Below are positions 335 through 38,192 of a stretch of DNA of 44,210 nt, piece after piece. Made by a program: the position numbers and the translations under genes. The stretch spans positions 1 through 44,210 of the forward strand of contig CAYGHU010000001.1 in NCBI GenBank assembly GCA_964349785.1. The letters run 5' to 3'. The notes beneath the pieces are model-generated. The model was not told where the DNA came from. It was given only the letters and a program-made list of their open reading frames with translations, and did no database searches. This stretch comes from an uncultured Dehalococcoidaceae bacterium (GTDB lineage: Bacteria; Chloroflexota; Dehalococcoidia; UBA2979). Each line of letters starts with the position of its first letter. The first letter of the stretch is position 1.

Positions 335-1798
335 ATGAGCGCACTCGCAGCAACGGCACAGGGGAACGGCTGGTGGCGCTACGGGGAAGGCACGTTCGTC
401 TTCAAGGAACATCCGGTGGTGCTGCGGCTCCGGGATGTCCACACGGACGATGGGCATGTCATCGCGAACGTCCATTGCTTCGAGGACACCGGCGACGGCT
501 CCGGCGAGACCCGCTTCCTGGCACGAGCTCGAGTAAACCTTACTAGCGACCGCTCCCTTCCTGGCTTCGTGCGAGCCTGCCAGTCCGCCTATAAGTGGAT
601 GGACCCGGCGATACCGGGCAAGAAGGGCGAGCCTGCCACGCCGCCGGCAGACCGCTGGGGGCCGCTGCTCGACAAAGTCTGCGTTGTGCTCATGGAGCAG
701 ATGGACTCCAAGGGGACGCGGACTCGCCTTACGCCGATGGTCGGGGCCGAGCTGGCGCAGCCGATGGCGTTCCGAGGCTTCATCCCCGCCAACACAGTGA
801 GCGGCATCATTGCCCACGGCGGGACAGGAAAGTCCATGCTGTCCGTCCTGCTGTGTCTTGCCGTGGCTACCGGGCAGCGCATCGGCCCGTTCGAGCCGCT
901 GATTCAGGGGCCGTGTCTCTACCTCGATTGGGAGAACGACGACAAGATGCACCGTCGTCGCCTCACGCGCCTCTGCGACGGCCTGGGGCTGCCGTTCCCG
1001 AACAACATCATGCACTACGCCGCTCGCGGGAAGCTGACGAGCGCCGAGAGTGACATCGTCGAGCTGGCCTACGAAGAAGGGGCCGTGTTCTCCGTGCTCG
1101 ACTCCATCGGCTTTGCGGCCGGCGGGAACCTCAACGACTCCGAGGTTTCGACGCACGCGGTCAACGTCTTGAAGCACATTCCGGGCACGAAGGTCATGGT
1201 CGCGCACGTCACAAAGGCCGCTGCAGAGTTCGGGGACAGCACCAAGACACCGATCGGCTCGGCGTTCTTTTGGAACGGGCCGCAGGCGGTCTACGAGCTG
1301 CGCGTGAGCGAGGACCTGGACAAGGCCGAGGCCGTGTTTGCTGTCTCCCAGAACAAGGCCAACGTAGGGCCAAAGTTGAGGCGCCCGGTCGGGGTGAAGC
1401 TGGTCTTCCAAGATCCAGACGGGCCGATCTTTGCTGACGAGCACGAAGTGAAGGATGGCGAGGTGGGGGCCGAAATCTTGCCGCTGCCGCTTCGGGTTCG
1501 CGACGTGCTGGGGCGCCTGGGGGCGCTGACGACGGCTGCGATATGCGACGAGCTGGGTGTGGTCACGAAACCGGAGTCCGAAAGCGTGGGGCGCATCCTG
1601 CGGGACATGCGGATGAAGAAAATCGTGACATCCCTGGCTCCGGAGTTCGGGACGAAGCGGACAGACTACCGCTGGGCGCTCGCGGTGCAGGACGAGAACG
1701 AGCCTACGCCGCTCCTGGGGCGCTGTCGCTGCGGGAAGCCGGCCGATCGGTATCACGACATCACAGGCGTCGCGTGCTGCGAGGCTCACAGTGGCTAG
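335..1798 (+). CDS. RepA/AAA_25-type RecA-fold ATPase (replication initiator/helicase-like) with a C-terminal wHTH-like region
   Basis: Walker A IIAHGGTGKSMLSVLL, then CLYLDWEND and VMVAHVTK strands typical of RepA/KaiC-like AAA_25. ATG 335 is preferred over the Arg-rich 5' extension of ORF 65..1798. Confidence 0.8.
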   Translation: MSALAATAQGNGWWRYGEGTFVFKEHPVVLRLRDVHTDDGHVIANVHCFEDTGDGSGETRFLARARVNLTSDRSLPGFVRACQSAYKWMDPAIPGKKGEPATPPADRWGPLLDKVCVVLMEQMDSKGTRTRLTPMVGAELAQPMAFRGFIPANTVSGIIAHGGTGKSMLSVLLCLAVATGQRIGPFEPLIQGPCLYLDWENDDKMHRRRLTRLCDGLGLPFPNNIMHYAARGKLTSAESDIVELAYEEGAVFSVLDSIGFAAGGNLNDSEVSTHAVNVLKHIPGTKVMVAHVTKAAAEFGDSTKTPIGSAFFWNGPQAVYELRVSEDLDKAEAVFAVSQNKANVGPKLRRPVGVKLVFQDPDGPIFADEHEVKDGEVGAEILPLPLRVRDVLGRLGALTTAAICDELGVVTKPESESVGRILRDMRMKKIVTSLAPEFGTKRTDYRWALAVQDENEPTPLLGRCRCGKPADRYHDITGVACCEAHSG

Positions 1799-2181
1799 GC
1801 CGGAGTGAGCGTCACCCTGACGTAGGGGCCGGACTTGAGGTCGACGTCGACCTCGGCGATTTTCATGTGCTCCCAGGTGTCATTGACGAGGGCCTTTGCG
1901 TCTCTTAGTCCGTCGAGAAGTGTTTTCGCGCCGCCTACGGCGTTGTCTGCGTCGAGCGGTGCGTACAGGCCGGCAGTTCGTGCGCCTTTCAGGCACCAGA
2001 CGAGCGACACGGCGACGCGGTCCGGTGCTTGCCACTTCTTCTCCCGCACGGCGACCTCGGCGAGCAGGTGCACGTCTCCGCGGTACTCGGCAACAGCCTG
2101 CGCCTTGGCTCGCCAGTAGGCGCGGCCGTTCGGGGACAGGTGGCGCGGTGGGAGTGGGAGCTCGATGACGAGCGGGTTCAC
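1795..2181 (-). CDS. rusA: RusA-family Holliday junction resolvase
   Basis: Motifs ELPLPPRHLSPNGRAYWRAKAQAV...LDADNAVGGAKTLLDGL. GTG 2181 overlaps the stop of the upstream mini-ORF as GTGA. The stop overlaps the convergent gene stop as CTAG (1795-1798). Confidence 0.8.
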   Translation of the reverse strand: MNPLVIELPLPPRHLSPNGRAYWRAKAQAVAEYRGDVHLLAEVAVREKKWQAPDRVAVSLVWCLKGARTAGLYAPLDADNAVGGAKTLLDGLRDAKALVNDTWEHMKIAEVDVDLKSGPYVRVTLTPA

Positions 2182-2267
2182 CAGCGGCGGCGGTAGGTGT
2201 GGATGATGGCGGCGGTCGAGGCCGTGAACGCGGCTAGGCTCGCCACCAGGGAGCACACAAGGAGCAT
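2178..2267 (-). CDS. 29-aa hydrophobic peptide (MLLVCSLVASLAAFTASTAAIIHTYRRRW)
   Basis: Not in the ORF track (<60 aa). ATG lies 2 nt after the upstream stop (TGAGGATG). GC3 is about 90%, higher than the alternative RusA 5' extension frame. Its stop overlaps the RusA GTG. Confidence 0.35.
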   Translation of the reverse strand: MLLVCSLVASLAAFTASTAAIIHTYRRRW

Positions 2268-2269
2268 CC

Positions 2270-2542
2270 TCACTCTGAGAGCCGGAACGGGTTGTCCCTC
2301 TCGGGCGGCAATCCGCCTCCGAGCATCTTCTCGAACAGCTTGCGGACCGCGCGCCAGGCGGCGAGGCCGATGGCTGAGCGGATCACGATGGAGAGGGTGT
2401 TGAAGTCCGGCGTGTCCTGGTAGAGCACGCCGGAGCTGAGGACGATGAACGCGAGCACGGCCAGGGCGTCCCGCTCTGCCTTGCGTAGCGTCTCAGGCTG
2501 GCCGAAATAGAGTCGCTGGGCCTTCCGCCACAGGTCGCTCAT
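2270..2542 (-). CDS. Two-TM small membrane protein, holin-like by position
   Basis: Hydrophobic segments ALAVLAFIVLSSGVLY and LSIVIRSAIGLAAW. ATGA overlap with the upstream gene. Lies downstream of the endolysin. Confidence 0.5.
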   Translation of the reverse strand: MSDLWRKAQRLYFGQPETLRKAERDALAVLAFIVLSSGVLYQDTPDFNTLSIVIRSAIGLAAWRAVRKLFEKMLGGGLPPERDNPFRLSE

Positions 2543-2781
2543 GCGCGTGCCGGCCAGTCCCAATACACGCTCGGCTTGTTGTCCGGGTCGGGGAATTGGC
2601 TGATGTGCTGCACCGACGTCTGCCAATCGGCGACGGACGGGCGATCGTTCGAGCCGTCCCGGAGAACTTGAAGGTTTACCGTCCCGGTGGTGCCCCAGAC
2701 GCGAACGATGATCGCGGCGCGTGGGCCGTCGAGGTCGGGGTGGAAGTAGTGGACGATTCGACCTACTGACAGACCTTCCAT
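2539..2781 (-). CDS. Hypothetical 80-aa protein in the lysis cassette
   Basis: ORF starts immediately after the endolysin stop (TAAATG). Coding-like composition, no TM segment. Confidence 0.6.
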   Translation of the reverse strand: MEGLSVGRIVHYFHPDLDGPRAAIIVRVWGTTGTVNLQVLRDGSNDRPSVADWQTSVQHISQFPDPDNKPSVYWDWPARA

Positions 2782-3561
2782 TTACTTTGCCTCCTCGTAC
2801 GCTTTCTTCACGGCTGCGGACGATTGACTGACGACAGCGCCAAGCCGGTTCTGCTGGAGCGTGTAGCCGTCGAGCAGGCTATTCCCGGTGGCGAACGCTG
2901 AGCCGTTCCATGCCTGCAGGCGCTTGAGTTGTGCCGCTGGGTCAGTCAGGCCGGTGAGGGCCTGGGCGACGGCTGCTGTCAGTGGGTCGGGCATGTCTTC
3001 CTCCTCGTTGGCGTCACGGACGGCACGGACCCACGCTCGGGCGTATCGGTCGCTGGCGCAGGCGGTCGGCGCGGTGCCGTACTTCGCTGCGAGCTCCTTG
3101 TGCTGCCACAGGTTCTTGCCGGCGCCGCTCGATACCGCTGGGCCTATCAGGGGCCGGAGATCCCTAACCAGCCGGCAGAACGTGTCCTCCGCGGCTGGGG
3201 TCAGGGGCTCGCCGTAGTTCGGGGCCAGTCCGCCCTCGGCTTCGATGCTGATGGTGGTGGTGTTGGCATCAGGGCCTCCGCTCGTCCAGGTGCAGGCGAA
3301 CAGCGGGTACATCTGGATGAGCAGGCCATTCTCACGGAGCACAAAGTGCACGCTGGCGGTCGCGTTCGCGGTGTAGCGTCCATCGGGGCCGCGCGAGGTG
3401 TCGAGGAAACGGTTAGGGATGCCGTCGCTGAATTCGTCTTCGCGTCCTACGACGGAGTGCACCGCAAGTGCCCTGCATGAGTTCCTCTGCGAGTAAACTT
3501 TGTCGGGCACGCCGGGTCGGTGCTGAGCCCAATCGATCCAGCCGTCAGGTGTAATGCCCAA
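2782..3561 (-). CDS. N-acetylmuramoyl-L-alanine amidase-type endolysin (Amidase_2/PGRP-like)
   Basis: Reads LAVHSVVG...ASVHFVL...ISIEAEGG...LWQHKELAAKYGTAPTAC, matching the Zn-ligand spacing of Amidase_2. TTG start with a GGAGG 9 nt upstream. Confidence 0.7.
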   Translation of the reverse strand: MGITPDGWIDWAQHRPGVPDKVYSQRNSCRALAVHSVVGREDEFSDGIPNRFLDTSRGPDGRYTANATASVHFVLRENGLLIQMYPLFACTWTSGGPDANTTTISIEAEGGLAPNYGEPLTPAAEDTFCRLVRDLRPLIGPAVSSGAGKNLWQHKELAAKYGTAPTACASDRYARAWVRAVRDANEEEDMPDPLTAAVAQALTGLTDPAAQLKRLQAWNGSAFATGNSLLDGYTLQQNRLGAVVSQSSAAVKKAYEEAK

Positions 3562-3625
3562 ATGCTCGCGCCTCCACGATGAATCATCGTGAGTCCACGA
3601 GCATTAGGCAAGATGCGGGAAAGGG

Positions 3626-3760
3626 TTAGCCGGGGTCTTGGTCGCTCCCGTCCGGGTAGCAGATGCCGATCGAACCGTCTTCGTAGGCGCTCCAGCAGTC
3701 TCCGGTGATACCTGTCAGGGAGCGGGCGAGCAGCGCCACGAGCGCAAGCCAGAGGATCAT
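3626..3760 (-). CDS. 44-aa signal-peptide/TM-bearing peptide (MILWLALVALLARSLTG...)
   Basis: Not in the ORF track. ATGA overlap with the upstream HTH gene. Hydrophobic N-terminus, two Cys. No canonical lipobox. Confidence 0.4.
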   Translation of the reverse strand: MILWLALVALLARSLTGITGDCWSAYEDGSIGICYPDGSDQDPG

Positions 3761-3954
3761 TTCTGGTTCCTCGTCCAGCCAGCGGGGCCTGAGGCTCGCG
3801 GCTTCATCTTCTCAACGTCGGCTTCGGTGAACAGGCGCACGCGTTCGGTTGCCTGAATGCCTATGCCGCGTTCCTTGGCGCGGCGTCGGATCAGGGATGC
3901 CGAGACCCCCAGTCGCTCGGCGATGTCGGCGGCGGTGAGGTAGGACAGTGTCAC
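3757..3954 (-). CDS. Xis/MerR-like helix-turn-helix DNA-binding protein (65 aa)
   Basis: Reads YLTAADIAERLGVSASLIRRRAKERGI...RLFTEADVEKM, an excisionase-type HTH. GTG 3954 overlaps the upstream stop as GTGA. Confidence 0.55.
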   Translation of the reverse strand: MTLSYLTAADIAERLGVSASLIRRRAKERGIGIQATERVRLFTEADVEKMKPRASGPAGWTRNQK

Positions 3955-4493
3955 AGCAAGACTCCCTGATTCATGGGCACGGCTGGCGCCTTCTTCGGAG
4001 CGTCGAGCAGGCGCGCCTGGGTCGAACGATACCCGTTGTGCTCGGCCTCGGTCGCGTAGGTGTCCTCGGCGGTGCCGTCGAGCGCGACGCGCTTCACGGT
4101 GGCCTCGGGCTTTGCCCAATCGTGCCAGGGCGTCGGGTGCGTCTCCGGGCATAGGCGCGGCTGGCATTGGTGGCCTCGGGTCTTGTCGGCGTTCCAATGG
4201 ATGACCACGGGTTCGCCTTTGTACTGATGGGCGGGCGCGTTCTTCACGTGGTAGGCGGGCATTTCGCAGGTGCAGAGTCCCCATGGATCGTAGCTACCGG
4301 GCTCGGGGTTCAACTGCTCGTGCTGGATGCGGATGTCGTGGAAGGCGAACGGGCTGAGCGAGCCTAACCGCTTCCCATTCTCACCGAACAGGAACACGGC
4401 GCCGCAGCTGGGATTCTGGCACTCGCGGTATCGGGGTGGGTTGGCATCGGCCGGCCACGGTGCGAGCGCGCCGTTACACTCCGGGCAGATCAT
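3951..4493 (-). CDS. Hypothetical zinc-ribbon protein (180 aa)
   Basis: N-terminal MICPECNG...CQNPSCG. ATGA overlap with the upstream gene. Confidence 0.7.
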   Translation of the reverse strand: MICPECNGALAPWPADANPPRYRECQNPSCGAVFLFGENGKRLGSLSPFAFHDIRIQHEQLNPEPGSYDPWGLCTCEMPAYHVKNAPAHQYKGEPVVIHWNADKTRGHQCQPRLCPETHPTPWHDWAKPEATVKRVALDGTAEDTYATEAEHNGYRSTQARLLDAPKKAPAVPMNQGVLL

Positions 4494-4660
4494 TTGGGCA
4501 GTCCGTGGGCCTGGCGGGCCTCGATGGCCTTGGTTTCGAGGTAGTCGGACAGGCTGATCCGCTGCTGCTCCTGCTCGAACGGGAGGCCAGCGGCGCGCAG
4601 GTGCCGAACGGCGCGTAGCAGGATGAGTAGGTCGGGCTCGGTGAGGATGATAGTGATCAT
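4490..4660 (-). CDS. Hypothetical 56-aa protein; N-terminus paralogous to the ORF starting at 5762
   Basis: Sequence MITIILTEPDLLILLRAVRHLRAAG. GAGGA sits upstream of ATG 4660. Confidence 0.55.
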   Translation of the reverse strand: MITIILTEPDLLILLRAVRHLRAAGLPFEQEQQRISLSDYLETKAIEARQAHGLPK

Positions 4661-4743
4661 CGGTGTCCTCTCAGTTGGTCGATGATGCAGAAGGCGATGG
4701 CCCCCCAGAGGGGAGCCACCACCAGGACGAAGGCGAGAATCAC
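4657..4743 (-). CDS. 28-aa TM peptide (VILAFVLVVAPLWGAIAFCIIDQLRGHR)
   Basis: Not in the ORF track. GTGA overlap upstream and ATGA overlap downstream. Confidence 0.35.
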   Translation of the reverse strand: MILAFVLVVAPLWGAIAFCIIDQLRGHR

Positions 4744-5036
4744 GAGAGCTCTGCCAGTAGCAGCGCCTTTGCGTACTTCGCCTCTTGCCTGCCAAGGTTC
4801 CGGCCGTAGTGGCGGTCGTTCGAGCTGATGATTGCGGTGAAAATGGCGCCGCGCTCCGGGCTCCAGTCGGCTTCTTCGCCAACCATGAAACCACCCGGAA
4901 TGTAGATAGGCGGGACGGCTCCGAGCAGGTCCCACATGTGCGCTTCGCTCATTTCTACCCATGCGGTCGACTCCGCTTTGTGAGCGTCGGTGATTGCTGG
5001 GAACGGCCATGCGTCGCGGCTGTCGATGATGGTCAC
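4740..5036 (-). CDS. Hypothetical 98-aa protein
   Basis: GTG start overlapping the upstream stop as GTGA. Globular-looking sequence (MWDLLGAVPPIYIPGGFMVGEE). Confidence 0.7.
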   Translation of the reverse strand: MTIIDSRDAWPFPAITDAHKAESTAWVEMSEAHMWDLLGAVPPIYIPGGFMVGEEADWSPERGAIFTAIISSNDRHYGRNLGRQEAKYAKALLLAELS

Positions 5037-5197
5037 AGCAGGGACTCGGCGATCTGCGTGCCGTACCAGCGAGCCATATTTGAGAGCTGGCGCTGCCAGG
5101 CGCCGGCCTCGGCCTGGACCTTCACCGCTCGCGCGGCTAGTCGCTCAATTCGGGCATCTCGCCGCATCTCGAATCGGTTGGGGTTCTCCGTGCTCAT
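5033..5197 (-). CDS. Hypothetical 54-aa helical protein (MSTENPNRFEMRRDARIERLAARAV...)
   Basis: Not in the ORF track. Preceded by the conserved leader GTCTTGGAGGACACA. Confidence 0.5.
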   Translation of the reverse strand: MSTENPNRFEMRRDARIERLAARAVKVQAEAGAWQRQLSNMARWYGTQIAESLL

Positions 5198-5262
5198 TTT
5201 GATGTGTCCTCCAAGACAGTGCTAACGCCGAAGCGAAGGGCGGAAGGTAGCGGGTCCGAAAC

Positions 5263-5394
5263 CTACTTAGGGCGATTGGTTTGGCGGTCGAGCCATGCCG
5301 CGCACTCTTCGCAGACAGGCACTTCGCCGAGGATTGGATGCCTGACGGTTTTGGTTGTGGTGTTTGGGCAGAGTGCGAACCATTGGCAATTCAT
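5263..5394 (-). CDS. 43-aa Cys4 mini zinc-binding protein (MNCQWFALCPN...VCEECAAW)
   Basis: ATGA overlap with the upstream gene. CxxxxxC...CxxC pattern. Confidence 0.55.
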   Translation of the reverse strand: MNCQWFALCPNTTTKTVRHPILGEVPVCEECAAWLDRQTNRPK

Positions 5395-5621
5395 GATTCG
5401 CAGTCCTCGCCACCGCAGCGGGTCGAGAGCGAGCGGCGAACGATTTGGTACTCGGCGCCGTAGATATCGGTGTAGTCGTTGTCGGCGACGTTCGAGCGGG
5501 CCATATCCATCTCGACGCAATAACCGCAGTAGTACAGGCCCTCGCGGTGCTCCCCGTCTTCGTCGGCGAGGAGCTGGAACATTTGCTTCGTGGCGGGCTG
5601 GCGGGTGGCGGTCTTAGGCAT
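5391..5621 (-). CDS. Hypothetical 76-aa Cys-containing protein (MPKTATRQ...YYCGYC...)
   Basis: Internal ATG 5621 has AAGGAG 7 nt upstream. GC3 rises downstream of this start. Confidence 0.55.
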   Translation of the reverse strand: MPKTATRQPATKQMFQLLADEDGEHREGLYYCGYCVEMDMARSNVADNDYTDIYGAEYQIVRRSLSTRCGGEDCES

Positions 5622-5762
5622 TGACCGACTCCTTGTGGATGGTGTCGCACATGTAGGGCGGGATAACCGTTCTGCATCGGTTACCCATAGGGAAAAACGG
5701 GCGGCGCGTACGGCGGAGAGCAGGATTCGTAGCTCATCGTCTGAAACGGTGATCGTGTTCAT
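5614..5762 (-). other. Small ORF with a reading-frame discontinuity at an A5/T5 run (frameshift, sequencing error or phase-variable site)
   Basis: ATG 5762 opens MNTITVSDDELRILLSAVRAARF. After the T5 run (plus strand A5 at 5693-5697), coding-like GC3 moves to the -1 frame. That frame ends at TAA 5614-5616, overlapping the next ATG. Confidence 0.35.
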
Positions 5763-5950
5763 CCTGCGTGGCTCCATCCGCGAGGGCTGCGGGCCTGGCC
5801 CATCGTGAAACGGCGGTATTCCTCGTCTTGCTTGCGGTCTACCGGGTCTTTCGACTCGCGGTACACGGGGCAGGTCGTTTCATGGCTGCCGTATCGCAGG
5901 GTGAATTGGGCGTGCGGTGCGAGGGTCGAGACGTAGCAGTTACAGGTCAT
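5759..5950 (-). CDS. Hypothetical 63-aa Cys-rich protein (MTCNCYVS...), first gene of the leftward operon
   Basis: ATG 5950 preceded by GTCTTGGAGGACACAG. ATGA overlap with the next ORF. Confidence 0.55.
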   Translation of the reverse strand: MTCNCYVSTLAPHAQFTLRYGSHETTCPVYRESKDPVDRKQDEEYRRFTMGQARSPRGWSHAG

Positions 5951-6090
5951 CTGTGTCCTCCAAGACGTTTGGTCGTCGGTCAACGATGAACCGGCGCCAC
6001 GTCTGTTCTACCCTTGTTCGTCGTAGGGTTGCAATAGGGAACGGCAATATATGACGCATCGTCGTCGAATAACGACACATCGTCGTCACC

Positions 6091-6148
6091 AGAGGGAAAC
6101 GGATGTCTCCGGTATCAGCATCCGTTGTTATGGCTGAGGCTAACGGTA
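6091..6148 (+). repeat. 58-bp imperfect direct repeat, copy 1
   Basis: Sequence agagggaaacggatgtctccggtatcagcatccgttgttatggctgaggctaacggta. Internal inverted repeat AACGGATG/CATCCGTT. Confidence 0.8.
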
Positions 6149-6233
6149 TCCCTCGGTAATGGCGCCGAGGTGCCGGGCCTCACCATCCCTGTACTTGACA
6201 AAACGTGAGATTAACAACGCTCGGTCATACCGG

Positions 6234-6291
6234 AGAGGGAAACGGAGACATCCGCCATTGCTATCCGTTGTTATGCGTGGGGCTAACGGAA
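6234..6291 (+). repeat. 58-bp imperfect direct repeat, copy 2
   Basis: 44/58 positions identical to copy 1 by hand alignment. The flanks and the AACGGA/TCCGTT stem are conserved and the loop is divergent. Confidence 0.8.
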
Positions 6292-6590
6292 CTCGTTATC
6301 GTCAACTGCAGATTCGGTGACGACCAATCGTCGCCAGATAACGCTGTCAAGTGTATCGTCTACAGGAGCGAAGCCTCCCCAGGGCGAGAGCGGAGGTAGA
6401 CAAGTAAGGGCGGGTATTGTCTTAGACGCAGACTCGCTGCGCTGCGTTTGCTTAATACCGAATCCGGTAATTAGTCACTGACTACAGTCACCATGGACGG
6501 AGCTAAAGCTCTACTCTCCCGAGGGGCTTTGAACCTACGGTTCTAAGGACTCCCTTTCGTCCCTTCCTGGTATTCGCTACTCTCATTCCA

Positions 6591-7085
6591 ATGACTGACT
6601 CGGCGCGTTCCCTCGACCTGGTGAACCTCGATGCATCTGACATCGCCACCATTGCCGATTCCCTCCCCAGCCTCCTCGACGAAGCGTTACCCCTGCTGTG
6701 GGGTCTGCTACGGAGTCGTAATAGTCGCGAGAAAGCGGCCATTCTTGGCATGGCGAAGGGCGAAGGGCGCCGCTCCGCGGCTATTCGTCTCGGAATCAGT
6801 CCCATCGAGCTCTATAACCTGATGAACGAGGACCCGGATCTACGGGAAGCCATCGAATTCGCTGAAGCTATCGCGATTGCACAGCCGGAAGGCGAGCTGA
6901 GGCGCCGTGCGCTGGCCGGCAATGACGACAGAGGGTCAATGCGAGCGTTGGAGATCTACCTCAAGCGGCATGATCCGGCATACCGCGACGCTCCCAGCAC
7001 GCAGATAACGTTGGTCAATGAGGCCAGTAGGGCACAGGCATCCGTCCAATCACGATGGGTCCCCACAGCCTCGGATTCTGCATAA
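6591..7085 (+). CDS. terS: Terminase small subunit-like HTH protein
   Basis: Reads AAIRLGISPIELYNLMNEDPDLREAIEFAEAIA...GELRRRAL...MRALEIYLKRHDPAYRD, resembling the TerS HTH plus helical tail pattern. First gene of the rightward operon. Confidence 0.6.
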   Translation: MTDSARSLDLVNLDASDIATIADSLPSLLDEALPLLWGLLRSRNSREKAAILGMAKGEGRRSAAIRLGISPIELYNLMNEDPDLREAIEFAEAIAIAQPEGELRRRALAGNDDRGSMRALEIYLKRHDPAYRDAPSTQITLVNEASRAQASVQSRWVPTASDSA

Positions 7086-7518
7086 CAGGTATAGTGCGAA
7101 GCCCACTCACGGCAGTGCTATCGTTTCCGTAGTCACGTCACTATCGAATCAGGACGCGACATAATCCGCTGCCTCGAAGGACGGGGGGTGGGTGGGGTGA
7201 CCGGGATGCGTGGGCGCCCGTTTCCCTATCGGGGTCCCATAGCCATCCATGAGCATCGTGCAGAGAAAAATAAAAACCGGTGCGGCGGAATTTCGTCGGA
7301 TTTTATGAAACCCGTGCGGGGGTGTTCAGCGTCCCCAGGTATCGGGACTGGCGCCGGGGGTGAGGATGCCGATGAGGAGGACAACGGCGAGGCCGGCGAG
7401 GATGAGGAGGGAGTCTTTGGACACGGTGGTGGGAGTGTAGGTGGTGGGGAGGTGGAAGTGAACGTCTAGACATCGTCTGCGGCGCGATGAATAATCGTGA
7501 CCTTGGAGGATTAGGCAG

Positions 7519-7920
7519 ATGACGTTTCCCTACGAAACAACGGAACTGGACAGGGCAATAGGGGTGATGCGGGACGCCGCAGACGCGCCTGGCAGGCCGA
7601 TTTACGGCAGGACGGGAGTGTCCCTGGCCGACCTTGAGCGGGCTACTCTCCAGATGGCAGACGCGCCGCAGAAGATGTCCCCGCTGGACCAGGCGTTCGA
7701 TCGGCTTGGGCAGACGACCGAGGGATTGCGAGCGCGCATCGAGCAACTGGAGAAGCGGCTCGCACCGCTGCTGTGTCACCGGCCTCAGAACGAGGTGGTG
7801 GACAAGGTTGGTGTCCTGGCTCCTTCGTCGGATTTGGTAATGCGGCTGAACGGTGGCGAGCACCTGTTGGGCGACCTTTGCGGGCGGCTCGACTACCTGC
7901 TCGACAACCTGGACTGCTGA
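7519..7920 (+). CDS. Hypothetical 133-aa protein
   Basis: GGAGGA lies 8 nt upstream of the ATG. Coiled-coil-like centre. Confidence 0.65.
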   Translation: MTFPYETTELDRAIGVMRDAADAPGRPIYGRTGVSLADLERATLQMADAPQKMSPLDQAFDRLGQTTEGLRARIEQLEKRLAPLLCHRPQNEVVDKVGVLAPSSDLVMRLNGGEHLLGDLCGRLDYLLDNLDC

Positions 7921-8149: not shown

Positions 8150-8349
8150 ACCGGGATGCCATCGCGACTGCGATTGCGGAAGCCGAGCGCTTTCTGAAAG
8201 CCGCCAAGGTGTTCGAGGCGGAAGACACGAGGCGTTACGGATTGGCTTCCGGCGGCGCCTTCTCAACCGAAGCCAACGTTGAGCACGCCGCGATGAAGCG
8301 GGCGAGCATGGACCTCACTCGGGCGCTGGCACGGATGCGGCGGCGATGA
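8146..8349 (+). CDS. Hypothetical 67-aa helical protein
   Basis: ATGA overlap with the upstream gene. Confidence 0.55.
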   Translation: MNRDAIATAIAEAERFLKAAKVFEAEDTRRYGLASGGAFSTEANVEHAAMKRASMDLTRALARMRRR

Positions 8350-9955: not shown

Positions 9956-11506
9956 GTGACAGCCGAACTTTCGATGTGGCCTCCCATCGACTACGTCGAG
10001 GCGATGCTCGGTGGGCACCCTGCGCCAGTCCATCCGGAGACCGGCGTGAAGCTGTGGGACCATGGTCTCCGGCTCTCCAAAGAGCAGCGGAAAATCCTCG
10101 TCTCAGGCGCCCGCTACAAACAGATTTGCGGCGGCGTGCGTGCCGGCAAGTCTTGGGTGGGCGCGGTCCACATCTACATCGACTACCTGTGGCGGCAGCG
10201 TCACGGGTTCGGCGACGACAAGTATCTCGTCGTCGCGCTCGGCTACATCCAGTGCGAAGAGGAGATGAACCACCTCCACCGGCTGCTCGAAGAGGACGGG
10301 ATTCCCCACTACTTCTCGACGCCGAAGCAGGACTCGTGGCGAATCTGGTTCCCGCACAACAACGTCGAGATCAGCACCAAGACGACGGCCGATGTGCCGA
10401 AGCTGTCCTCCAAGGCGTACCGCATGGTCGTCATGGCGGAAGCAAACCAGTCCGTGCGAGAGGCGTACCAGAACCTCAAGGAACGGACTTCGCAGACGCG
10501 CGGCGCCGTCATCCTGGAAGGCACCTTCGAAAAGGCCCTCCCTTGGTATGCCCAGATGCAGGACGAGTGGTCGAAGCCGGGAGCCGAGGGCGAGTCCTTC
10601 GAGCTGCCGACCTGGTCGAACATCGTCAACTACCCCGGCGGGCGGGATGACCCCGAAATCCTCCAGCAGGAAATTGGGATGTCCCCCGAGCGGTTCATGG
10701 AGCGCTTCGGCGGAAAGGCCGGCCGGCGGTCCGACCTTGTCATGCGCTACGCCGACGAACGCTACTGCGTCGCGCACCGCTACCCGAACTTCGCCACGAG
10801 CTTCGACCCCGAGGGGGAGGTAATCCTCTGGGGCGACCCCGGCAGCACGCACGCCTACGCCGTGGCGGCAATCCAGTTCGACCAAGACCCGATAACGAAA
10901 GCCGAGACCGCCTGGGTATTCGACAGCATCTACCGCTGGAACCTCGACGCAGAGGCCATCATCGAAGAAGCCGCCAACCGTCCTTGGGCGGCGAACGTGT
11001 CGTCCATCGTGCTCGACTTCGCTGCGCGCCAGCAGAACGCAAACGGCCCGGCGAACACGGAGCAGTGGGCGAAAGGCTGGCTGCGAAAGACCGGCCGGCA
11101 GATTTACGTGGAGACGCAGCAGGTGCCTTTGCAGGTGGGTTACGACGTCCACAAGCGGGCGCTGCTCAACGACTGGCCCGAGGACGTTGCTCGAGCGACG
11201 TTCGACCGCGAAGGAGTCATGCGGCGCGTCACGAACCCCGAGGGCAACCGCATCATGTTCGCCCCCGGCGCGTGTCCGGCTGTGTGGGGCGGACACGTCG
11301 ATGGGCAGTTCTACCAGGGCGAGTATTCGCTGCACCGCCAGAAGCGAAACCGGGAAGGCTCACAGGTGGGTGACGACCCGATTCCTGTGGATGACGACAT
11401 GATCAAGGCCATCAACTACGGCGCGTATCACCGCTGGGGAGCATCGGGCCACGCACGGCGGCTGGACTACACTCCGCGGACATGGGAACTCGTCGTCGCG
11501 TCATAA
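9956..11506 (+). CDS. terL: Terminase large subunit
   Basis: Walker A GGVRAGKSW, Walker B-like YRMVVMAEAN, and C-terminal nuclease-like acidic motifs (ILWGDPGSTHAY, IVLDFAAR). Followed by the portal. Confidence 0.85.
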   Translation: MTAELSMWPPIDYVEAMLGGHPAPVHPETGVKLWDHGLRLSKEQRKILVSGARYKQICGGVRAGKSWVGAVHIYIDYLWRQRHGFGDDKYLVVALGYIQCEEEMNHLHRLLEEDGIPHYFSTPKQDSWRIWFPHNNVEISTKTTADVPKLSSKAYRMVVMAEANQSVREAYQNLKERTSQTRGAVILEGTFEKALPWYAQMQDEWSKPGAEGESFELPTWSNIVNYPGGRDDPEILQQEIGMSPERFMERFGGKAGRRSDLVMRYADERYCVAHRYPNFATSFDPEGEVILWGDPGSTHAYAVAAIQFDQDPITKAETAWVFDSIYRWNLDAEAIIEEAANRPWAANVSSIVLDFAARQQNANGPANTEQWAKGWLRKTGRQIYVETQQVPLQVGYDVHKRALLNDWPEDVARATFDREGVMRRVTNPEGNRIMFAPGACPAVWGGHVDGQFYQGEYSLHRQKRNREGSQVGDDPIPVDDDMIKAINYGAYHRWGASGHARRLDYTPRTWELVVAS

Positions 11507-17447: not shown

Positions 17448-20400
17448 ATGCCTTTCGATAAGCCGTGGCGCTGGGCGGACAAAGAGCTCGTCCGGAACCA
17501 GCAGCAGCGCAAGTTCGAAGAGACCGCTCTCGCCACCGATGACGAGCGGCAGCGCCGTTTCTTCGGCCAGGATGCCGCCGACCCCGGCAATCGCTTCTGG
17601 CAAGGCACGGACCCGACACCGCAGCGGCAAGGCAACGCCTTCACGGACATGGTCGGCAAGGCGATGAAGCCGCTCGGCTGGGCGAAGGAGAACATTGGCG
17701 AGCCGATTGGCGGCGATGTGCTCGGTGCGTTGACCGACGACAAGGGCCATTTTTCCATCAGCCCAAAGGGTGTGTTGAAAGCGGAGATCGCGGCGAACCC
17801 CATCTCCCGCATCGTCTCCGATGTGTGGGGCGGCGATAAGCCGTACTCCACGGGCAAGGACGAGTACCAGCGCTTCCGTGCCAGCGACGCGCCGGTAGGC
17901 GTCAAGGTGGGCGCCGATGTCGCTATCGACCCGCTGTCATGGATAGGCCCGGGTGCGCTCAAAGGCCTGGGCCTCGGCAAGGTGGCGAGCTTCCTGGAGC
18001 AGCCGGTACAGGCGACGGTTGGCGGCGCGATCGGTGCCGGCGCCGCGGCGCAGGTTGCCGAACAGGCGGACGCGCCGGATTGGGTGAAGGCTGCCGCGCC
18101 GTTCGTGGGCGGATTGGCCGGCGGGGTGGCCGGTGGCGTCGCGCGTCCCCCGACCGCTGCGGAGATTCGCGCGGCGAAGATGGGCGCCAAGGCTGGCTTC
18201 ACCTTCCCGGTGACAGGTGTCATCCACGCTGACCAACATCACGCCGAGCGGTACATGGACGTGCTGACCCGACATGAGGTGCCGTGGGAAATCGGGGACG
18301 AGGGCTTTATCGAAGCCGACCGCGAAGTCGCCGAAGCGACCGCGAAGCGCCTCAGCGCAGCTACCCGCGTCCTCGAAGGGGACAAGACGCCCGGCGGCGG
18401 CGATGCGGTGCACTGGATTCCGAAGTATGGCACCCCCGAGTACGACGATTACATGCGTCGCCTCGAAGGCGGGTACGACAACAAAGAAGGCTCCGGCCGC
18501 AGCATTGACGGACGCTCCGGGCCGAGTGGCGACCCCGACGAAATCCGCGCGGCAGTTAAGGACCTGACGGACATGCAGCGGATTTACGAAGTGCTGCAAG
18601 ACGAAATCGTGGAGCCTCACATCGAGGGCCGCCGAGTGGGCTTCAAGGGCGGCGAGACCGTCACGCCAAACGATGATCCGATGGCAGTTCTCGAAGCCAT
18701 AGGCGGCGTGACGACCGGGAAGCAGGGGGACAAAAACCTGACGACCGTTGCGGCTGCCCTATCGGAAGCGGACGCCTATGCGAACGGCCTCATAAGCGCC
18801 GAGACCTCGCCGGACGATCTCATCGTCGAGATTGCCGCGCACATCAAGTCTCGCGAGTTCAACACGCAGATTGGGAAACGCGGCGGGCGGAAGAACCTCA
18901 ACATGACGGAGCGGGCCTACCGGCAGCGCCTGATTGAAATCGGAGACGCGTTCGAGGCGAGCGGCCACGACGCGGTGTATGATCCAACCAATGCCCGGAG
19001 TGCCGTACCAGAACCTGGAACACTACCTACAGGACCCGACGGACAGGGAGTGGGCGGGGAGTCGTCGGCTGGCGGAACTGCGGCGGATAGCGGACCACTT
19101 CCAGTCGAAGGAGTCCCCGGAACCGCCCCCTGGGAGTGGACAGCCGAACACGAAGCCGTCCTCTCCCAGCTAGATCCGGAGACTCAGCAGAAGTTCGACG
19201 AACTCTTCCCCGGTCGGCGGACAGGTGCCGCGGACAGCGGCGAATCGACGTTTCAGGACAGCGCAGGGACAGGCCCGGACAGCTCCGGCCCGATACCGCC
19301 CCTCGACCGCACAAGCGCACGCTCCGCTCTCGGCCTCGACCCGAACGGCACCTACACGCCCGATGAGTTGAAGCAGGCTTGGCGCGCCGCGGCCCGTCGC
19401 TACCATCCGGACGTCAACCCTTCCGCCACGGCGACAGAGGACATGCAGGCCATCAACGCCGCATACGACGAGCTCCTTCACGGCAACAGCGGGTACGACT
19501 GGACGGACGCGTACGATAACCCCGCTGCCGGAGCCGGTGGTGGCGCGGGCACGCCGCCGCCGCCCGGTGGCTCATGGGGCGGACAGCAGTCCACTCCTGG
19601 TGGAAGCTGGGGGGCGCAGGCGACCGGTGCCGGCTGGGGCGCGAAGGCGCACGCTCCGAACCCGCCGCCTCCTCCGGCCGGTGGTCCCTCCTTCAAGCAC
19701 TTCGCTCAGGACGAGCGGTTCGACATCTTCAAGGCCAAGTCTCGCGACAAGACGATGTCCGAGGCCAGCGCGTGGATGGACTCCGCGAAGGGCAAGTTCG
19801 CGCAGACAATCCGCGAGTGGGTGAGCAAGGCCGGCGGCAGCAACTTCGACAAGAACCTCATCCTCGACGCCAAGATCACCCCGTTCATCGTGGGCGAGAA
19901 GAACCGCACGGCGAACATCATCAACTCGTGGGTGCTCTCCGTACGAGAGAAAGCGCAGCGGCAGTTCGAAGCCGCGGGCCTCATGGTCGAGCAGGACGCT
20001 GCGGGCGACTTCCGCATCAAGGGGCTCGGCATCCCGGTCGAGGACCTGGTCGACAGCCGCGGCCGTGCAAAGAATGCTGCGGCACAGGCAGCCTACGCCG
20101 CGCTCACGCCAGAGCAGCGGGCAGCCGTCGACTACCTGGAATGGGCGAACGAAGCGGTGGTGAAGACCATCCTCGCGCACAACGGGAAGCCGACGTTGGA
20201 CGGCGACCTCGTCGGGGAATACTTCCCGCGCAAGGTGGATTCCGTGGATGGGACGGCCCGCACGAGCGGCGCTTCGAATGCCAACCGCTCGCGCACGATG
20301 GAGTCCGTCGAGGAGGCGCTGAACCGGAACGTCGGCGGAAAGGTCGGCTACGGGAATCCCTGGGAAGCCTTCGAGGCCGGTCTCCGTGGGAAGCTGCTCG

Positions 20401-35571: not shown

Positions 35572-36537
35572 TCAGTAGTCATCGGGCGAGTCGTGGGTGT
35601 CGTTGGCGTAGTCCTCACCCAAGCTCGCAAGGTAGATGCCCGTCGTCTTGGCCTCCGCGTGGCCGAGTCGCTTCTGTAGGGCGAGCGGGTCCCGCGTCTT
35701 CTGGTAGAACCTCGTTGCAAACGTGTGCCGGAGCCGGTGGAGCTTCGGATTCTCGACCTTCGCCTCCTTGCAGACGGCCTTGAGCATCGCGTCGAGCGTC
35801 GAGTACCCCATCTGGGTCATGCGCTGCGTCACCCAGAGCGTTTTGAACTCCACGTTCGGGCGCACCCTGAGGTAATCCCGCACCGCCTGGGCCGCGTTCC
35901 GCCCGACGCGCACATACCGGACCTTGTCGCCCTTCCCGACGAGCCTCACGATAGTCGGCTTCTCGTCGGTGCGTTTCTTCCCTGACCACTTGAAGGACGC
36001 CTCGGTGAGCGTCACAACCTCGTCGGCGCGGGCGCCCGTTGAAAGCATCAGAAGGATGATCGCGCGGTCACGGAGACCGCCGGCCACCAGTCCCGTCCCG
36101 CAGTGGTAGAGGATGCGAGCCATCTCCTCTTCGGTGAAGGGCTCGCCCTCGGGCCGCGGGAGCTTCGGCGCCCTGACCTTCTCCATTGGGCTCGTCGGCA
36201 GCCGGTCCCGCGCCACACACCAGCCAAAGAAGCGGTTGGCGATGGCGTAGTGGTTGCGGAGCGTGCTCGCGGCGATCGGCCGGCGCTTCGATGTCTCGGT
36301 GCGCTGGTACGAGCGGTTACGTTCGTACAGCAGCCAGCCGCGAAGGTCGTCCTCCGTGACTTGGCTGAGCAACCGCCGTCCCTTTTTCAGCAGGAACGGC
36401 AGCAACACCGTCTTGAGGTGGTAGCGGTAGGAGTCCACCGTCTTCTCGGTGAGCCCCAACTCGCTGTCGTCGAGGAAGGCTTCGATCGAATCCATAAGTT
36501 CGAAAGAAGCAGGTTGCGGTTGTCGTCTTGCTGGCAT
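35572..36537 (-). CDS. int: Tyrosine recombinase/integrase
   Basis: Motifs TGARADEV (Arg I), HRLRHTFATRF (H-x-x-R) and LGHAEAKTTGIYL (His/Tyr), with an N-terminal SAM-like core-binding region. Confidence 0.9.
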   Translation of the reverse strand: MPARRQPQPASFELMDSIEAFLDDSELGLTEKTVDSYRYHLKTVLLPFLLKKGRRLLSQVTEDDLRGWLLYERNRSYQRTETSKRRPIAASTLRNHYAIANRFFGWCVARDRLPTSPMEKVRAPKLPRPEGEPFTEEEMARILYHCGTGLVAGGLRDRAIILLMLSTGARADEVVTLTEASFKWSGKKRTDEKPTIVRLVGKGDKVRYVRVGRNAAQAVRDYLRVRPNVEFKTLWVTQRMTQMGYSTLDAMLKAVCKEAKVENPKLHRLRHTFATRFYQKTRDPLALQKRLGHAEAKTTGIYLASLGEDYANDTHDSPDDY

Positions 36538-37581: not shown

Positions 37582-37699
37582 TACCACTTGCCACTTCCTC
37601 GGACCGTTCTTTTGTTCACCCAGCAACGGCGGGTTGCGGTGGGAAACATAACGATTATCCGACGGAAAGAGTACGCAGAGTCGCGACATGTTGACAAGC

Positions 37700-37713
37700 A
37701 TGTTTGCAAACAT
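37700..37713. promoter_or_regulatory. Perfect 14-bp palindrome ATGTTTGCAAACAT (candidate operator) next to TTGACA 37691-37696
   Basis: Read directly from sequence. Lies in the 225-bp divergent intergenic region. Confidence 0.55.
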
Positions 37714-37806
37714 CTCGTGTAACAAGGTTATTGCAAGTTGGGCCGGATTCGGTTAAAACTCGTGGGCACACGATCATCGATCGTCTAAAGCCAGGGAGTT
37801 AGCCGA

Positions 37807-38016: not shown

Positions 38017-38192
38017 TGACGTGGAGCGACCGCCAGCGGGGCGGTCTGACGACGTTAGAGCGTTACGGCGCGGGCCATCTGCGACGAATAGCAACAGGGA
38101 AACGCCGGCGAAGGCGCATAGCGAAAGTTGGAAGGGCTACCGGGCCCGTCTTCGCCGCTGATTCAAATCGCGCCGAGGTGATGCGGGTGTAG
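38016..38192 (+). CDS. 58-aa basic protein (RGGLTTLERYGAGHLRRIATGKRRRRR)
   Basis: TGATG overlap with the upstream gene. GC3 drops in the 3' half. Confidence 0.35.
   Translation: MTWSDRQRGGLTTLERYGAGHLRRIATGKRRRRRIAKVGRATGPVFAADSNRAEVMRV

Follow-up and report, generated by a model that had tools for sequence, protein, structure and literature searches.

Clustered DNA words and conserved blocks around the terS gene of a probable Chloroflexota phage: a possible packaging recognition region

Background

In phage lambda, cosB comprises three sites for the small terminase subunit (TerS; gpNu1), R3, R2 and R1, which lie in mixed orientation and adjoin the conserved cosN (PMC4669245). Among lambda-like phages, cosN and cosQ are conserved and cosB differs (PMC4669245). 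In SPP1, TerS-binding repeats flank the cut site and span the start of terS, and in SPP1-related phages these pac repeats are only moderately conserved (PMC4737164, PMC4669245). The DNA-binding domain of SF6/SPP1 TerS has little specificity for pac repeats (PMC4737164); repeats close to the gene are therefore not necessarily bound directly. In P22, pac is one asymmetric 22-bp site lying inside the TerS gene (PMC4669245).

We describe repeats around the terS gene in a 44,210-nt stretch of DNA (the window) from a temperate, uncultivated phage whose hosts are probably Chloroflexota. A first-pass annotation had noticed six copies of a short motif bracketing a TerS-like gene, and had proposed a TerS recognition array of the pac or cosB kind, binding sites for another phage HTH protein, or a phage-specific promoter element. 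Repeats grouped around terS are to be expected at a pac or cos site, which makes such a cluster useful rather than surprising.

Results

The region contains the following features (window coordinates, strand, description).

5687-5700, plus: motif variant ATAGGGAAAAACGG, in the 137-bp gap that separates minus-strand genes 5391-5621 and 5759-5950
6028-6044, plus: conserved block GTTGCAATAGGGAAC with motif variant ATAGGGAACGG (6034-6044) and TTGCAA (6029-6034)
6091-6146, plus: 56-nt direct repeat unit 1, with AGAGGGAAACGG (6091-6102), CGGATGTCTCCG (6100-6111), ATCCGTTGTTATG and GCTAACGG
6146-6154, minus: inverted degenerate motif copy GAGGGATAC, directly 3' of repeat unit 1
6234-6289, plus: 56-nt direct repeat unit 2, with AGAGGGAAACGG (6234-6245) and CGGAGACATCCG (6243-6254)
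6295-6394, plus: conserved non-coding blocks 5' of terS, GTTATCGTCAACTGCAGATTCG (6295-6316), GATAACGCTGTCAAG, and GCGAAGCC..GGCGAGAGCGGA (6368-6394), aligned with relatives L001 and L013
6591-7085, plus: terS, for an Sf6 gp1-like small terminase subunit, from profile matches, gene order in relatives and structure comparison
7088-7128, plus: conserved post-stop block GGTATAGTGCGAAG (7088-7101), then CGTTTCC (7122-7128)
7181-7205, plus: G-rich block of 25 nt, ACGGGGGGTGGGTGGGGTGACCGGG, invariant and a candidate site for terminase cutting or anchoring
7218-7229, minus: ATAGGGAAACGG (reading CCGTTTCCCTAT on the plus strand), the best motif copy, 13 nt past the G-rich block
7311-7322, plus: CCCGTGCGGGGG after an A-rich tract, the second family-wide invariant element 3' of terS
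7467-7495, plus: sigma-70-like promoter match TAGACA-17-AATAAT (10/12 consensus positions, a consensus match only), upstream of ORF 7519-7920
7522-7533, minus: motif copy GTAGGGAAACGT, overlapping codons 2-5 of ORF 7519-7920

The motif is a short TAGGGAAACGG-like DNA word, clustered in opposed orientations around terS. On re-checking, the six copies lie at the coordinates, with the sequences and on the strands given in the first-pass annotation, and the two cores it had named elsewhere, at 38096 and 18873, are also correct. In the exhaustive pattern scan that the annotation had proposed, [AG][TG]AGGGA{2,5}CG[GT] gave six matches, all within 5687-7533 and none elsewhere in the 44 kb, compared with a mean of 0.26 and a maximum of 4 in whole-genome shuffles (n = 300). 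Shuffles of 5600-7600 alone averaged only 0.016 matches, so the lower GC of the region is not the cause of the cluster. AGGGAAACG was found five times against 0.30 expected, a count reached in none of 100 shuffles. TAGGGAA, the top enriched 7-mer of the region, occurs there four times and is absent from the other 42 kb. Eight of the 11 genomic [TG]AGGGAA words fall within 5688-7532, and the shorter AGGGAA is found eight times in the region versus seven in the remaining genome. The core at 38096 was dismissed as a chance occurrence, since it lies in a possible small ORF after a Cro-like gene and deviates at both motif ends.

The cluster is not a uniform six-site array, its copies being placed in four different sequence contexts. 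The length of the A-run varies (AA in copy 6034, AAAAA in copy 5687), so the truly common core is [TG]AGGGAA only. Copies 6091 and 6234 occupy the same position in the two 56-nt direct-repeat units and are therefore not independent. With this duplication counted once, at least four independent [TG]AGGGAA copies are present against about 0.14 expected from the rate in the rest of the genome. The annotation had overlooked several related copies, namely GAGGGATAC at 6146-6154 on the minus strand, CGTTTCC at 7122-7128, and two minus-orientation AGGGAA words at 6608 and 6659. The latter two fall within the first 75 nt of terS, so that repeats are found inside the gene as well as upstream of it. The layout that had been described, with plus-oriented copies upstream and minus-oriented copies downstream, holds for AGGGAA, for which all four words left of 6300 are on the plus strand and all four right of 6600 on the minus strand, but breaks down at the minus-strand copy 6146-6154. 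This copy pairs with 6092-6097 in a single-sequence fold.

Among relatives the motif is semi-conserved, being found at four of the six positions and recognisable at 51-65% TerS identity. Copies 5687 and 7522 have no support from relatives. Copy 5687, the weakest copy and one with a longer A-run, had no counterpart by eye in the matching spacer of L001; copy 7522 is missing where the homologous ORF of L012 starts and is possibly coincidental. At the place equivalent to copy 7218, L012 has CTGTTTCCCCAT, L013 has a weaker version and L019 has none. Copy 7218 is flanked on both sides by blocks conserved across the phage family.

The identification of ORF 6591-7085 as TerS was borne out by a profile match to phrog_4044 'terminase small subunit' (E = 7.6e-6; relatives down to 4.5e-9) and by terL and portal neighbours in relatives. 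In L003, L007, L008, L009 and L019, terS is directly upstream of terL and portal; in the window, terS and terL are separated by 2.9 kb of small ORFs. Pfam Sf6_terminase (PF20901) matched five of 39 family members (best E = 3.7e-6), the window protein itself not being among them. The AF2 model of TerS is all-helical (pLDDT 81). Its top Foldseek match was Sf6 TerS (3hef; prob 0.93, E = 0.48, TM 0.37-0.45, a weak match), with the phBC6A51 small terminase (2ao9) also among the top matches, a ranking that is consistent although the scores are weak. Against lambda Nu1, BLASTP gave E = 0.6 and there was no Phage_Nu1 Pfam match. Predicted TerS recognition helices differ among relatives (SPIELYNLMNE, SPAELKAKLNA, GVSYLDGYIAR and TYSLLAAECSR). 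The window TerL reaches no more than 22-24% identity, with Microbacterium phage terminases, so the packaging type is not inferable from it.

The terS gene lies within a 1.5-kb low-GC island of conserved non-coding DNA, which is a compositional outlier (GC 0.535 to 0.60 versus 0.643 genome-wide); GC3 of terS is 0.65 versus ~0.84 in other genes. TerS is the sole protein encoded in the island, and no conserved small ORFs were detected in its flanks by tblastx. L013 retains both non-coding flanks of terS, and its ORFs other than terS match nothing in the window. From sequence comparison, terS appears to have been inherited together with the non-coding DNA on both its sides. Blastn of 5600-7600 against INPHARED found no reference-phage relatives, and IMG/VR gave no matches for TerS, TerL or three conserved DNA patterns. 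The relatives of the window subtype number three, all partial. Nothing in the whole window reached the Rfam gathering threshold, 5900-7600 giving one chance-level match (E = 2.9). A tRNA search was negative, and a search for literature on Tepidiforma prophages found nothing.

Upstream of terS, the best-conserved element is the 12-mer CGGATGTCTCCG, ahead of the motif; it is also present in L001 and L013. Repeat unit 2, which is 77% identical to unit 1 and lies 143 bp downstream of it, carries the reverse complement of this 12-mer (CGGAGACATCCG). AACGGA occurs five times in 6020-6300 against 0.08 expected. The 15-mer of the copy 6034 block is identical in L001 and is not conserved in L013. The order of the inverted 12-mers in L001 is opposite to that in the window, and an invertible segment between them was rejected, as inversion cannot swap repeat order. 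A CRISPR-like mini-array was likewise rejected, the repeats being 56 nt long and only 77% identical, as was a conserved RNA formed by the 56-nt units: unit 1 beats shuffles on both strands, unit 2 does not, and six units from three phages have no common fold.

In the distant relatives L003, L007, L008 and L019, a lambda-O-like gene (for an N-terminal wHTH protein) lies directly upstream of terS. Within this gene lie seven palindromic iterons of 21-24 bp, with an AT-rich stretch after them. A tblastn search of the window found no homologue of this initiator (best E = 0.29). The L003-type iteron half-site GAGGGTAAC and the window's GAGGGAAAC are one base apart (8/9 match).

Downstream of terS, both invariant elements are kept across the family to 30-40% TerS identity. 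The G-rich block is matched at 25/25 positions in L019, whose TerS is 34% identical, and at 24/25 in L013, with variants present in L003, L009, L011 and L012. Each family locus with CCGTGCGGGG has it once only, on the plus strand and downstream of terS. The end of contig L006 falls within the G-rich block and contigs L001 and L002 end at its expected start in the alignment, the ends of these three independent assemblies thus falling within ~25 aligned nt. Other contigs run straight across the block, and none on record starts at it. The ends could be coverage drop-outs at the G-run, the assemblies having 2-3x coverage. The predicted RNA fold of the G-rich region is not above shuffles. A hairpin formed by the G-rich block and copy 7218 gave a tidy three-sequence plus-strand consensus, but it was rejected with single-sequence z-scores of ~0 in five of six relatives and a partner arm absent from L019 and L009. 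By eye, ORF 7188-7469 was not conserved as an ORF.

Discussion

We tentatively propose, at somewhat under an even chance, that the motif copies are part of a composite packaging recognition region of the pac/cos type organised around terS. The earlier suggestion of a TerS array at a pac or cos site is the best supported of the three, though in part and indirectly: the confinement of the motif to the island, the adjoining invariant blocks and the three contig ends point to it. The simple six-box form of that array is disfavoured, because the copies occupy four contexts, two of them are unsupported by relatives, and other elements of the island are better conserved.

In this proposal, an oligomeric Sf6-gp1-like TerS would display several HTH domains, which would grip the dispersed [TG]AGGGAA(A)CG words, facing one way upstream of terS and the opposite way downstream. 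This contact would wrap or loop the DNA and so place TerL close by for the initiating cut. The leading candidate for the position of that cut is the invariant stretch ACGGGGGGTGGGTGGGGTGACCGGG (7181-7205), which 13 nt separate from the best motif copy. Phage-specific recognition would come from the variable motif, in the manner of lambda cosB or the SPP1 boxes, whereas the better-conserved TerL or a host factor would recognise the invariant blocks, in the manner of lambda cosN and cosQ. A semi-conserved motif together with differing TerS helices is the pattern expected of specificity sites that co-vary with their reader. We infer both the cut at the candidate G-rich block and the binding of the motif by TerS.

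Several observations sit uneasily with packaging. The copies span 1.85 kb, far beyond lambda cosB (120 bp) or the SPP1 pac region. Copies 5687 and 7522 lack comparative support, copy 6146 violates the orientation rule, and the 12-mer rather than the motif is the best-conserved upstream element. A terminase cut between terS and terL would also be unusual.

Control of the expression of terS and the divergent late operons is possible, if rather unlikely. The region would then contain promoters and long leaders for the leftward operon (small genes, lysis) and for rightward terS, with the motif copies and 56-nt units serving as a regulator's operator or activator sites or as leader-RNA elements; 3' of terS, the elements would form a terminator or attenuator, and the next operon's promoter would come after it. 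The region does lie at the switch from minus-strand to plus-strand genes, and, read as CCGTTTCCCT, each copy runs with local transcription upstream of a gene start (5687 before 5621; 6034, 6091 and 6234 before 5950; 7218 before 7519). The copies have no consistent -35/-10 partner, however, and the promoter-like site at 7467-7495, which would suit such control, is one of only two sigma-70-like sites in 2.2 kb. Long conserved blocks reach the terS start codon; yet the island encodes no regulator, and L013 retains the island though its flanking ORFs are unmatched in the window. As for RNA, three relatives have a GC-rich palindrome after the G-rich block, each with a sequence of its own (GGGCGCCC, GGCCGGCC and GGGGCCCC), and the consensus fold is -24.9 kcal/mol on the plus strand versus -16.2 kcal/mol on the minus strand. 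Against this, in most sequences neither the units nor the G-rich region fold better than shuffles, one compensatory pair only was found, and no Rfam family matched. The 12-mer occurs in either orientation and the layout of the CGGAT/ATCCG words changes from relative to relative, so double-stranded DNA sites fit better than a conserved RNA fold. No candidate binder besides TerS is encoded in the island, and the other phage HTH proteins named in the first-pass annotation are neither favoured nor disfavoured.

A bolder extension of the packaging reading, which we consider improbable, is that the terS island (~5984-7518) is a self-contained, portable packaging cassette that moves as a unit between otherwise unrelated Chloroflexota phages and is cut between terS and terL. 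Such a cassette would consist of the TerS gene, its own recognition words and the two family-wide invariant terminase sites.

An origin of replication is very unlikely. The cis replication region of phage P4, ori/crr, consists of two direct repeats carrying iterons; by this likeness the low-GC upstream region would act as an iteron-type origin through its AACGGA and [TG]AGGGAA words and its two 56-nt units, the initiator being encoded elsewhere. The segment 5984-6590 takes in the lowest GC of the genome (0.534 for 6001-6500; 0.535 for 5984-6590), yet it has no clear AT-rich unwinding element. Distant relatives carry the lambda-O-like gene with its iterons at exactly this position 5' of terS, and the L003-type half-site GAGGGTAAC is one base off GAGGGAAAC; the window lacks an initiator homologue by tblastn (best E = 0.29), and its repeats, a pair of units 143 bp apart plus irregular short words, are out of helical register. 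The motif also occurs within terS and 3' of it, and L013 has kept the island together with terS while its other ORFs are unmatched in the window.

It is equally improbable that the words have no dedicated function and are a by-product of the 56-nt duplication, of ancestral iteron relics and of the atypical composition of a horizontally acquired terS cassette. One duplication accounts for two copies, two more are without comparative support, and the A-run length varies; even with the duplication counted once, at least four independent [TG]AGGGAA words stand against ~0.14 expected. The island is a compositional outlier, but composition-keeping shuffles of the region give 0.016 matches versus six observed, and the motif is recognisable at four positions in relatives with 51-65% TerS identity.

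A phage-specific promoter, as the first-pass annotation had also suggested, gained no support. No phage RNA polymerase was found among the ten largest ORFs, nor any RNA polymerase or sigma factor among the ORFs scanned, and the flanks of the copies are unlike each other. Neither by eye nor by scan did the copies show a consistent -35/-10 or ECF-type partner at a fixed distance, no CGT-type -10 was seen by eye at 16-17 nt after GAAAC, and in the orientation first assigned the downstream copies would fire antisense into terS. Stoperators of Cluster A mycobacteriophages are many asymmetric, genome-wide sites in one orientation relative to transcription, and stoperator-like repressor sites were rejected with every pattern match lying within 1.85 kb and none elsewhere. 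An attP site was rejected because the integrase is 28 kb off and the integrated prophage L008 has terS, the G-rich block and terL in one uninterrupted stretch; the Tepidiforma lysogen KatS3mg064 harbours an L008-type prophage.

If the packaging reading is true, these would be the first candidate packaging signals for a temperate phage lineage known only from metagenomes and from prophages in Tepidiformaceae/Dehalococcoidia bins. The 25-mer ACGGGGGGTGGGTGGGGTGACCGGG and CCGTGCGGGG could then help in orienting these genomes, setting their limits and predicting the termini, and the variable motif with the variable TerS helix would offer a natural series for the evolution of packaging specificity. 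Should the cassette in addition be portable, swapping it would swap packaging specificity, and the invariant 25-mer would be a universal genome-end marker for the entire uncultivated lineage.

The locus can be set beside four described systems. Like lambda O/ori, relatives L003, L007, L008 and L019 show iterons inside an initiator gene directly 5' of terS, and an iteron origin (at least three in-register repeats, an AT-rich stretch and an initiator) is recognised in these four and not in the window. The window, unlike lambda O/ori, has no initiator gene, in-phase iterons or AT-rich flank, the likeness consisting of position and the 8/9 half-site match.

With lambda cos, the window shares several copies of a ~12-bp word in mixed orientation adjoining terS, and highly conserved elements beside variable ones that may determine specificity. 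The core 7-mer CGTTTCC/GGAAACG of cosB is identical to that of the window, which may be coincidental, since the TerS is not homologous to Nu1. A lambda-type cosB would have its words confined between cosN and the terS start and a Nu1-type TerS, neither of which was found. Lambda cosB occupies 120 bp wholly between cosN and the Nu1 start codon, whereas the window copies are scattered to either side of terS across 1.85 kb, with the invariant block downstream of the gene. Nu1 is a winged-helix dimer and the window TerS is Sf6-like; the window has no known IHF site or cohesive ends.

The SPP1/SF6 pac (pacL, pacC and pacR; boxes a, b and c) is far more compact than 1.85 kb, does not bracket the whole of terS and is unrelated in sequence. 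Its direct-repeat sets extend across the promoter region into the 5' part of terS, and its TerS contacts DNA on both sides of the initial cut; the window repeats upstream of and inside terS may form a comparable arrangement. Compared with P22 pac, the window repeats are many and mostly outside coding sequence; with the headful pac of P22 and Sf6, the window has in common a TerS of the same fold class (Sf6 gp1-like) and, on the packaging reading, a recognition site linked to terS itself.

The phage and its terS gene

The window is a temperate tailed phage with a GC content of 64% (0.643 genome-wide), and its DNA matches the ENA metagenomic contig ERZ27247837 k141_814642 (44,265 bp). The following genes were identified:

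9956-11506, TerL
35572-36537, tyrosine integrase
near 37.2-38.0 kb, HTH and M78-peptidase pair with a Cro-like gene
in the window, RecT
in the window, protein with an AAA_25 domain that weakly matches DNA polymerase/primase
in the window, amidase endolysin
in the window, major head protein

No nucleotide match to the window was found in the reference phage collection, and tRNA and Rfam searches of the window returned no match. Genome bins containing TerS relatives are labelled Tepidiforma, Tepidiformaceae, Dehalococcoidia and Chloroflexota, and the host is therefore probably a member of the Chloroflexota. The virion-gene block includes an ORF of 1679 aa (17448-22487) that has a J (DnaJ) domain at residues 628-676. 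Its 2109-aa counterpart in the related locus L003 has this domain as well; a giant structural or ejection-type protein with a J domain is unusual. Within the immunity intergenic region (37690-37745) are a perfect 14-bp palindrome, ATGTTTGCAAACAT, and another site centred on TTGCAA. The genome has five TTGCAA words, three of them in the two big divergent intergenic regions; one of these three (6029-6034) is inside a conserved block at 6028-6042.

The plus-strand ORF at 6591-7085, labelled TerS-like in the first-pass annotation, is indeed terS. It matched PHROG small-terminase families, a profile search recovered 94 homologues, and a TerS homologue lies directly 5' of terL and portal in L003, L007, L008 (an integrated prophage), L009 and L019. 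Pfam Sf6_terminase was matched by 5 of 39 family members, and the TerS profile matched the Sf6 gene 1 protein weakly in the PDB. The AF2 model (pLDDT 81) was closest in structure to the small terminases of Sf6 and phBC6A51, although the scores were weak. Relatedness to lambda Nu1 was not detectable.

Two further proteins were seen in other settings. On contig L015 (5827-10700), the TerS-family homologue P0080 (248 aa) is preceded by a portal gene and by a 593-aa ORF that carries no annotation; cas3 and cas5d (PF09704 Cas_Cas5d) come directly after it. The TerS-like protein P0077 is encoded in identical form on contigs L024, L025, L026, L030, L032 and L033 from at least six unrelated samples. 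All of these contigs start 392-393 nt 5' of its gene, which points to a fixed end, or to the boundary of a repeat, in another element that is widespread.

A low-GC island between divergent genes

Minus-strand genes occupy 1795 to 5950 and plus-strand genes run from 7519 on. In the 1.5-kb stretch that separates them, terS is the only conserved coding sequence, and TerS is the only protein encoded by the island. The terS flanks (5984-7518) are the lowest-GC DNA of the genome (0.535 5' of terS and 0.594 3' of it, versus 0.643), and GC3 is 0.65 in terS versus about 0.84 in other genes. Small ORFs fill an insertion of 2.9 kb between terS and terL. The relative L013 keeps both non-coding flanks, although none of its ORFs other than terS matches anything in the window. 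The island has the look of a mosaic cassette.

The motif cluster and its partial conservation

The motif cluster is real and not compositional, because pattern counts exceed those in both genome and region shuffles. The coordinates and sequences reported for six copies in the first-pass annotation were all correct, and a scan of the whole window confined the motif to the terS region: a pattern spanning the six copies matched those six only (mean 0.26 in genome shuffles and 0.016 in shuffles of the region alone). AGGGAAACG occurred 5 times versus 0.30 expected. TAGGGAA was the top enriched 7-mer of 5600-7600, where it occurs 4 times; the other 42 kb lacks it. Eight of the 11 genomic [TG]AGGGAA words lie within 5688-7532, four on the plus strand at the left and four on the minus strand at the right. 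The proposed plus-upstream, minus-downstream orientation held for the six listed copies; it is broken by GAGGGATAC at 6146 (minus strand), which, with CGTTTCC at 7122 and two AGGGAA words within terS, extends that list. The 6091 and 6234 copies are homologous positions in a 56-nt direct repeat, and A-run length differs in the 5687 and 6034 copies.

Three close relatives were found, all partial: L001/L002 (TerS 61% identical to that of the window), L012 (3' part only; 65%) and L013/L014 (51%). Four of the six copies recur in some of them:

5687, plus strand, no counterpart in relatives
6034, plus strand, within GTTGCAATAGGGAAC, which L001 has unchanged and L013 lacks
6091 and 6234, plus strand, heads of the two 56-nt units (6091-6146 and 6234-6289); TTAGGTAAACAG and CGAGGAAATCCGG in L001, unit heads AGTGGGAACGA and AGAGGGAGGCAAAG in L013
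7218, minus strand, kept in L012 as CTGTTTCCCCAT; weak in L013, not in L019
7522, minus strand, no counterpart in relatives

More conserved than the motif is a 12-mer of the units, CGGATGTCTCCG, exact in the window, L001 and L013. The window and L001 each have it in both orientations, with the order swapped in L001, and L013 has a single copy; CGGAT/ATCCG words surround it in varying arrangement. This pattern, together with inconsistent fold statistics of the units, favours sites in double-stranded DNA over a conserved RNA. Just 5' of unit 1, GACRCATCGTCGTC occurs twice, 21 bp apart (6053-6087), and TCGTCGT is kept at the matching place in L001.

Invariant elements downstream of terS

Two non-coding elements are kept family-wide, down to 30-40% TerS identity, and far exceed the conservation of surrounding proteins:

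7181-7205, 25-mer ACGGGGGGTGGGTGGGGTGACCGGG; identical in L019 (3615-3639), whose TerS is only 34% identical, one base different in L013 (1816-1840), variants in L003, L009, L011 and L012
7311-7322, plus strand, CCGTGCGGGG (7312-7321) with an A-rich leader; L019 counterpart at 3689-3698, exactly one copy 3' of terS in each family locus carrying it

Across the family the two lie at differing distances, roughly 50 to 160 nt, so they are separate sites; since they folded no better than shuffled controls, we treated them as DNA sites. Between the two sits the best copy of the motif (7218-7229). At the 25-mer, a G-rich block roughly 100 nt past the terS stop codon, the ends of three independently assembled contigs fall within about 25 aligned nt of one another:

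L006, ends at window position 7188, inside the G-run
L001, ends at 8224, aligned just 5' of the block
L002, ends at 1546, aligned just 5' of the block

Because several other contigs read through the block, these ends could mark either a physical genome end or coverage drop-out at the G-run in low-coverage data.

Candidate functions of the island

Judged from sequence, the island is tentatively a candidate packaging recognition region of the pac or cos type. The phage-specific words would be read most simply by TerS itself, given that the island is kept with terS in L013 and encodes no other protein. The predicted TerS recognition helix differs strongly among close relatives, in parallel with motif drift. 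With dispersed, opposed TerS-specific words, a ring-shaped TerS bearing several HTH domains would be able to wrap or loop DNA and set TerL at a nearby conserved site, for which 7181-7205 is the leading candidate. The invariant words might be read by a family-shared factor, such as TerL (about 52% identical) or a host factor. Against packaging weigh the unusually large 1.85 kb spread, the two copies (5687 and 7522) without support in relatives, the atypical position that a cut between terS and terL would have, and a study of SF6 that cautions against taking pac repeats as specific TerS sites (PMC4737164). That the island forms a portable cassette for packaging, with an end marker common to the whole lineage, is unlikely.

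Control of terS and of the divergent late operons is a more doubtful function than packaging. It fits the island's location, and read as CCGTTTCCCT all copies point along local transcription, but it comes without a regulator, consistent promoter elements or RNA-structure support; the phage promoter raised in the first-pass annotation found no support.

A replication origin is highly unlikely, despite the low GC and a positional analogy to four distant relatives in which a 264-287-aa gene precedes terS:

L003, 6654-7517
L007, about 3290-4020
L008, about 4000-4810
L019, 2210-3004

The proteins are mutually homologous, with weak HTH-domain matches (PaaX, HTH_36) near the N-terminus. In the middle of each gene, seven palindromic iterons of 21-24 bp (GAGGGTAAC-N3-GTTACCCTC or GGTCAC-N4-6-GTGACC) are followed by an AT-rich stretch. 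We take this to be the lambda O/ori architecture, and the gene probably marks the replication origin of these four. No counterpart of it was found in the window, which has neither an initiator nor in-phase iterons. The half-site GAGGGTAAC of L003-type phages is one base off the window's GAGGGAAAC, which keeps an origin or origin relic as a minor rival for the upstream region. The predicted TerS helices of L003 and L019, however, are closer to each other than either is to that of the window, so that here likeness in motif does not go along with likeness in TerS. A relic or compositional by-product is very improbable, contradicted by the region-only shuffles and the partial conservation.

Comparison with known packaging sites

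In lambda, variable cosB R sites adjoin the conserved cosN and cosQ (PMC4669245), a logic paralleled by the window's variable motif and invariant blocks. The lambda R3, R2 and R1 core (L018, 1-240), CGTTTCC/GGAAACG, is the same 7-mer as the window motif, which may be coincidence given the undetectable TerS homology. In SPP1, repeats lie on both sides of the cut and extend into terS (PMC4737164, PMC4669245), a layout that parallels the repeats around terS here. Packaging-site repeats around terS are a known kind of feature; new here are sequence, lineage and layout, in which sites bracket the entire terS and invariant blocks lie between terS and the next gene.
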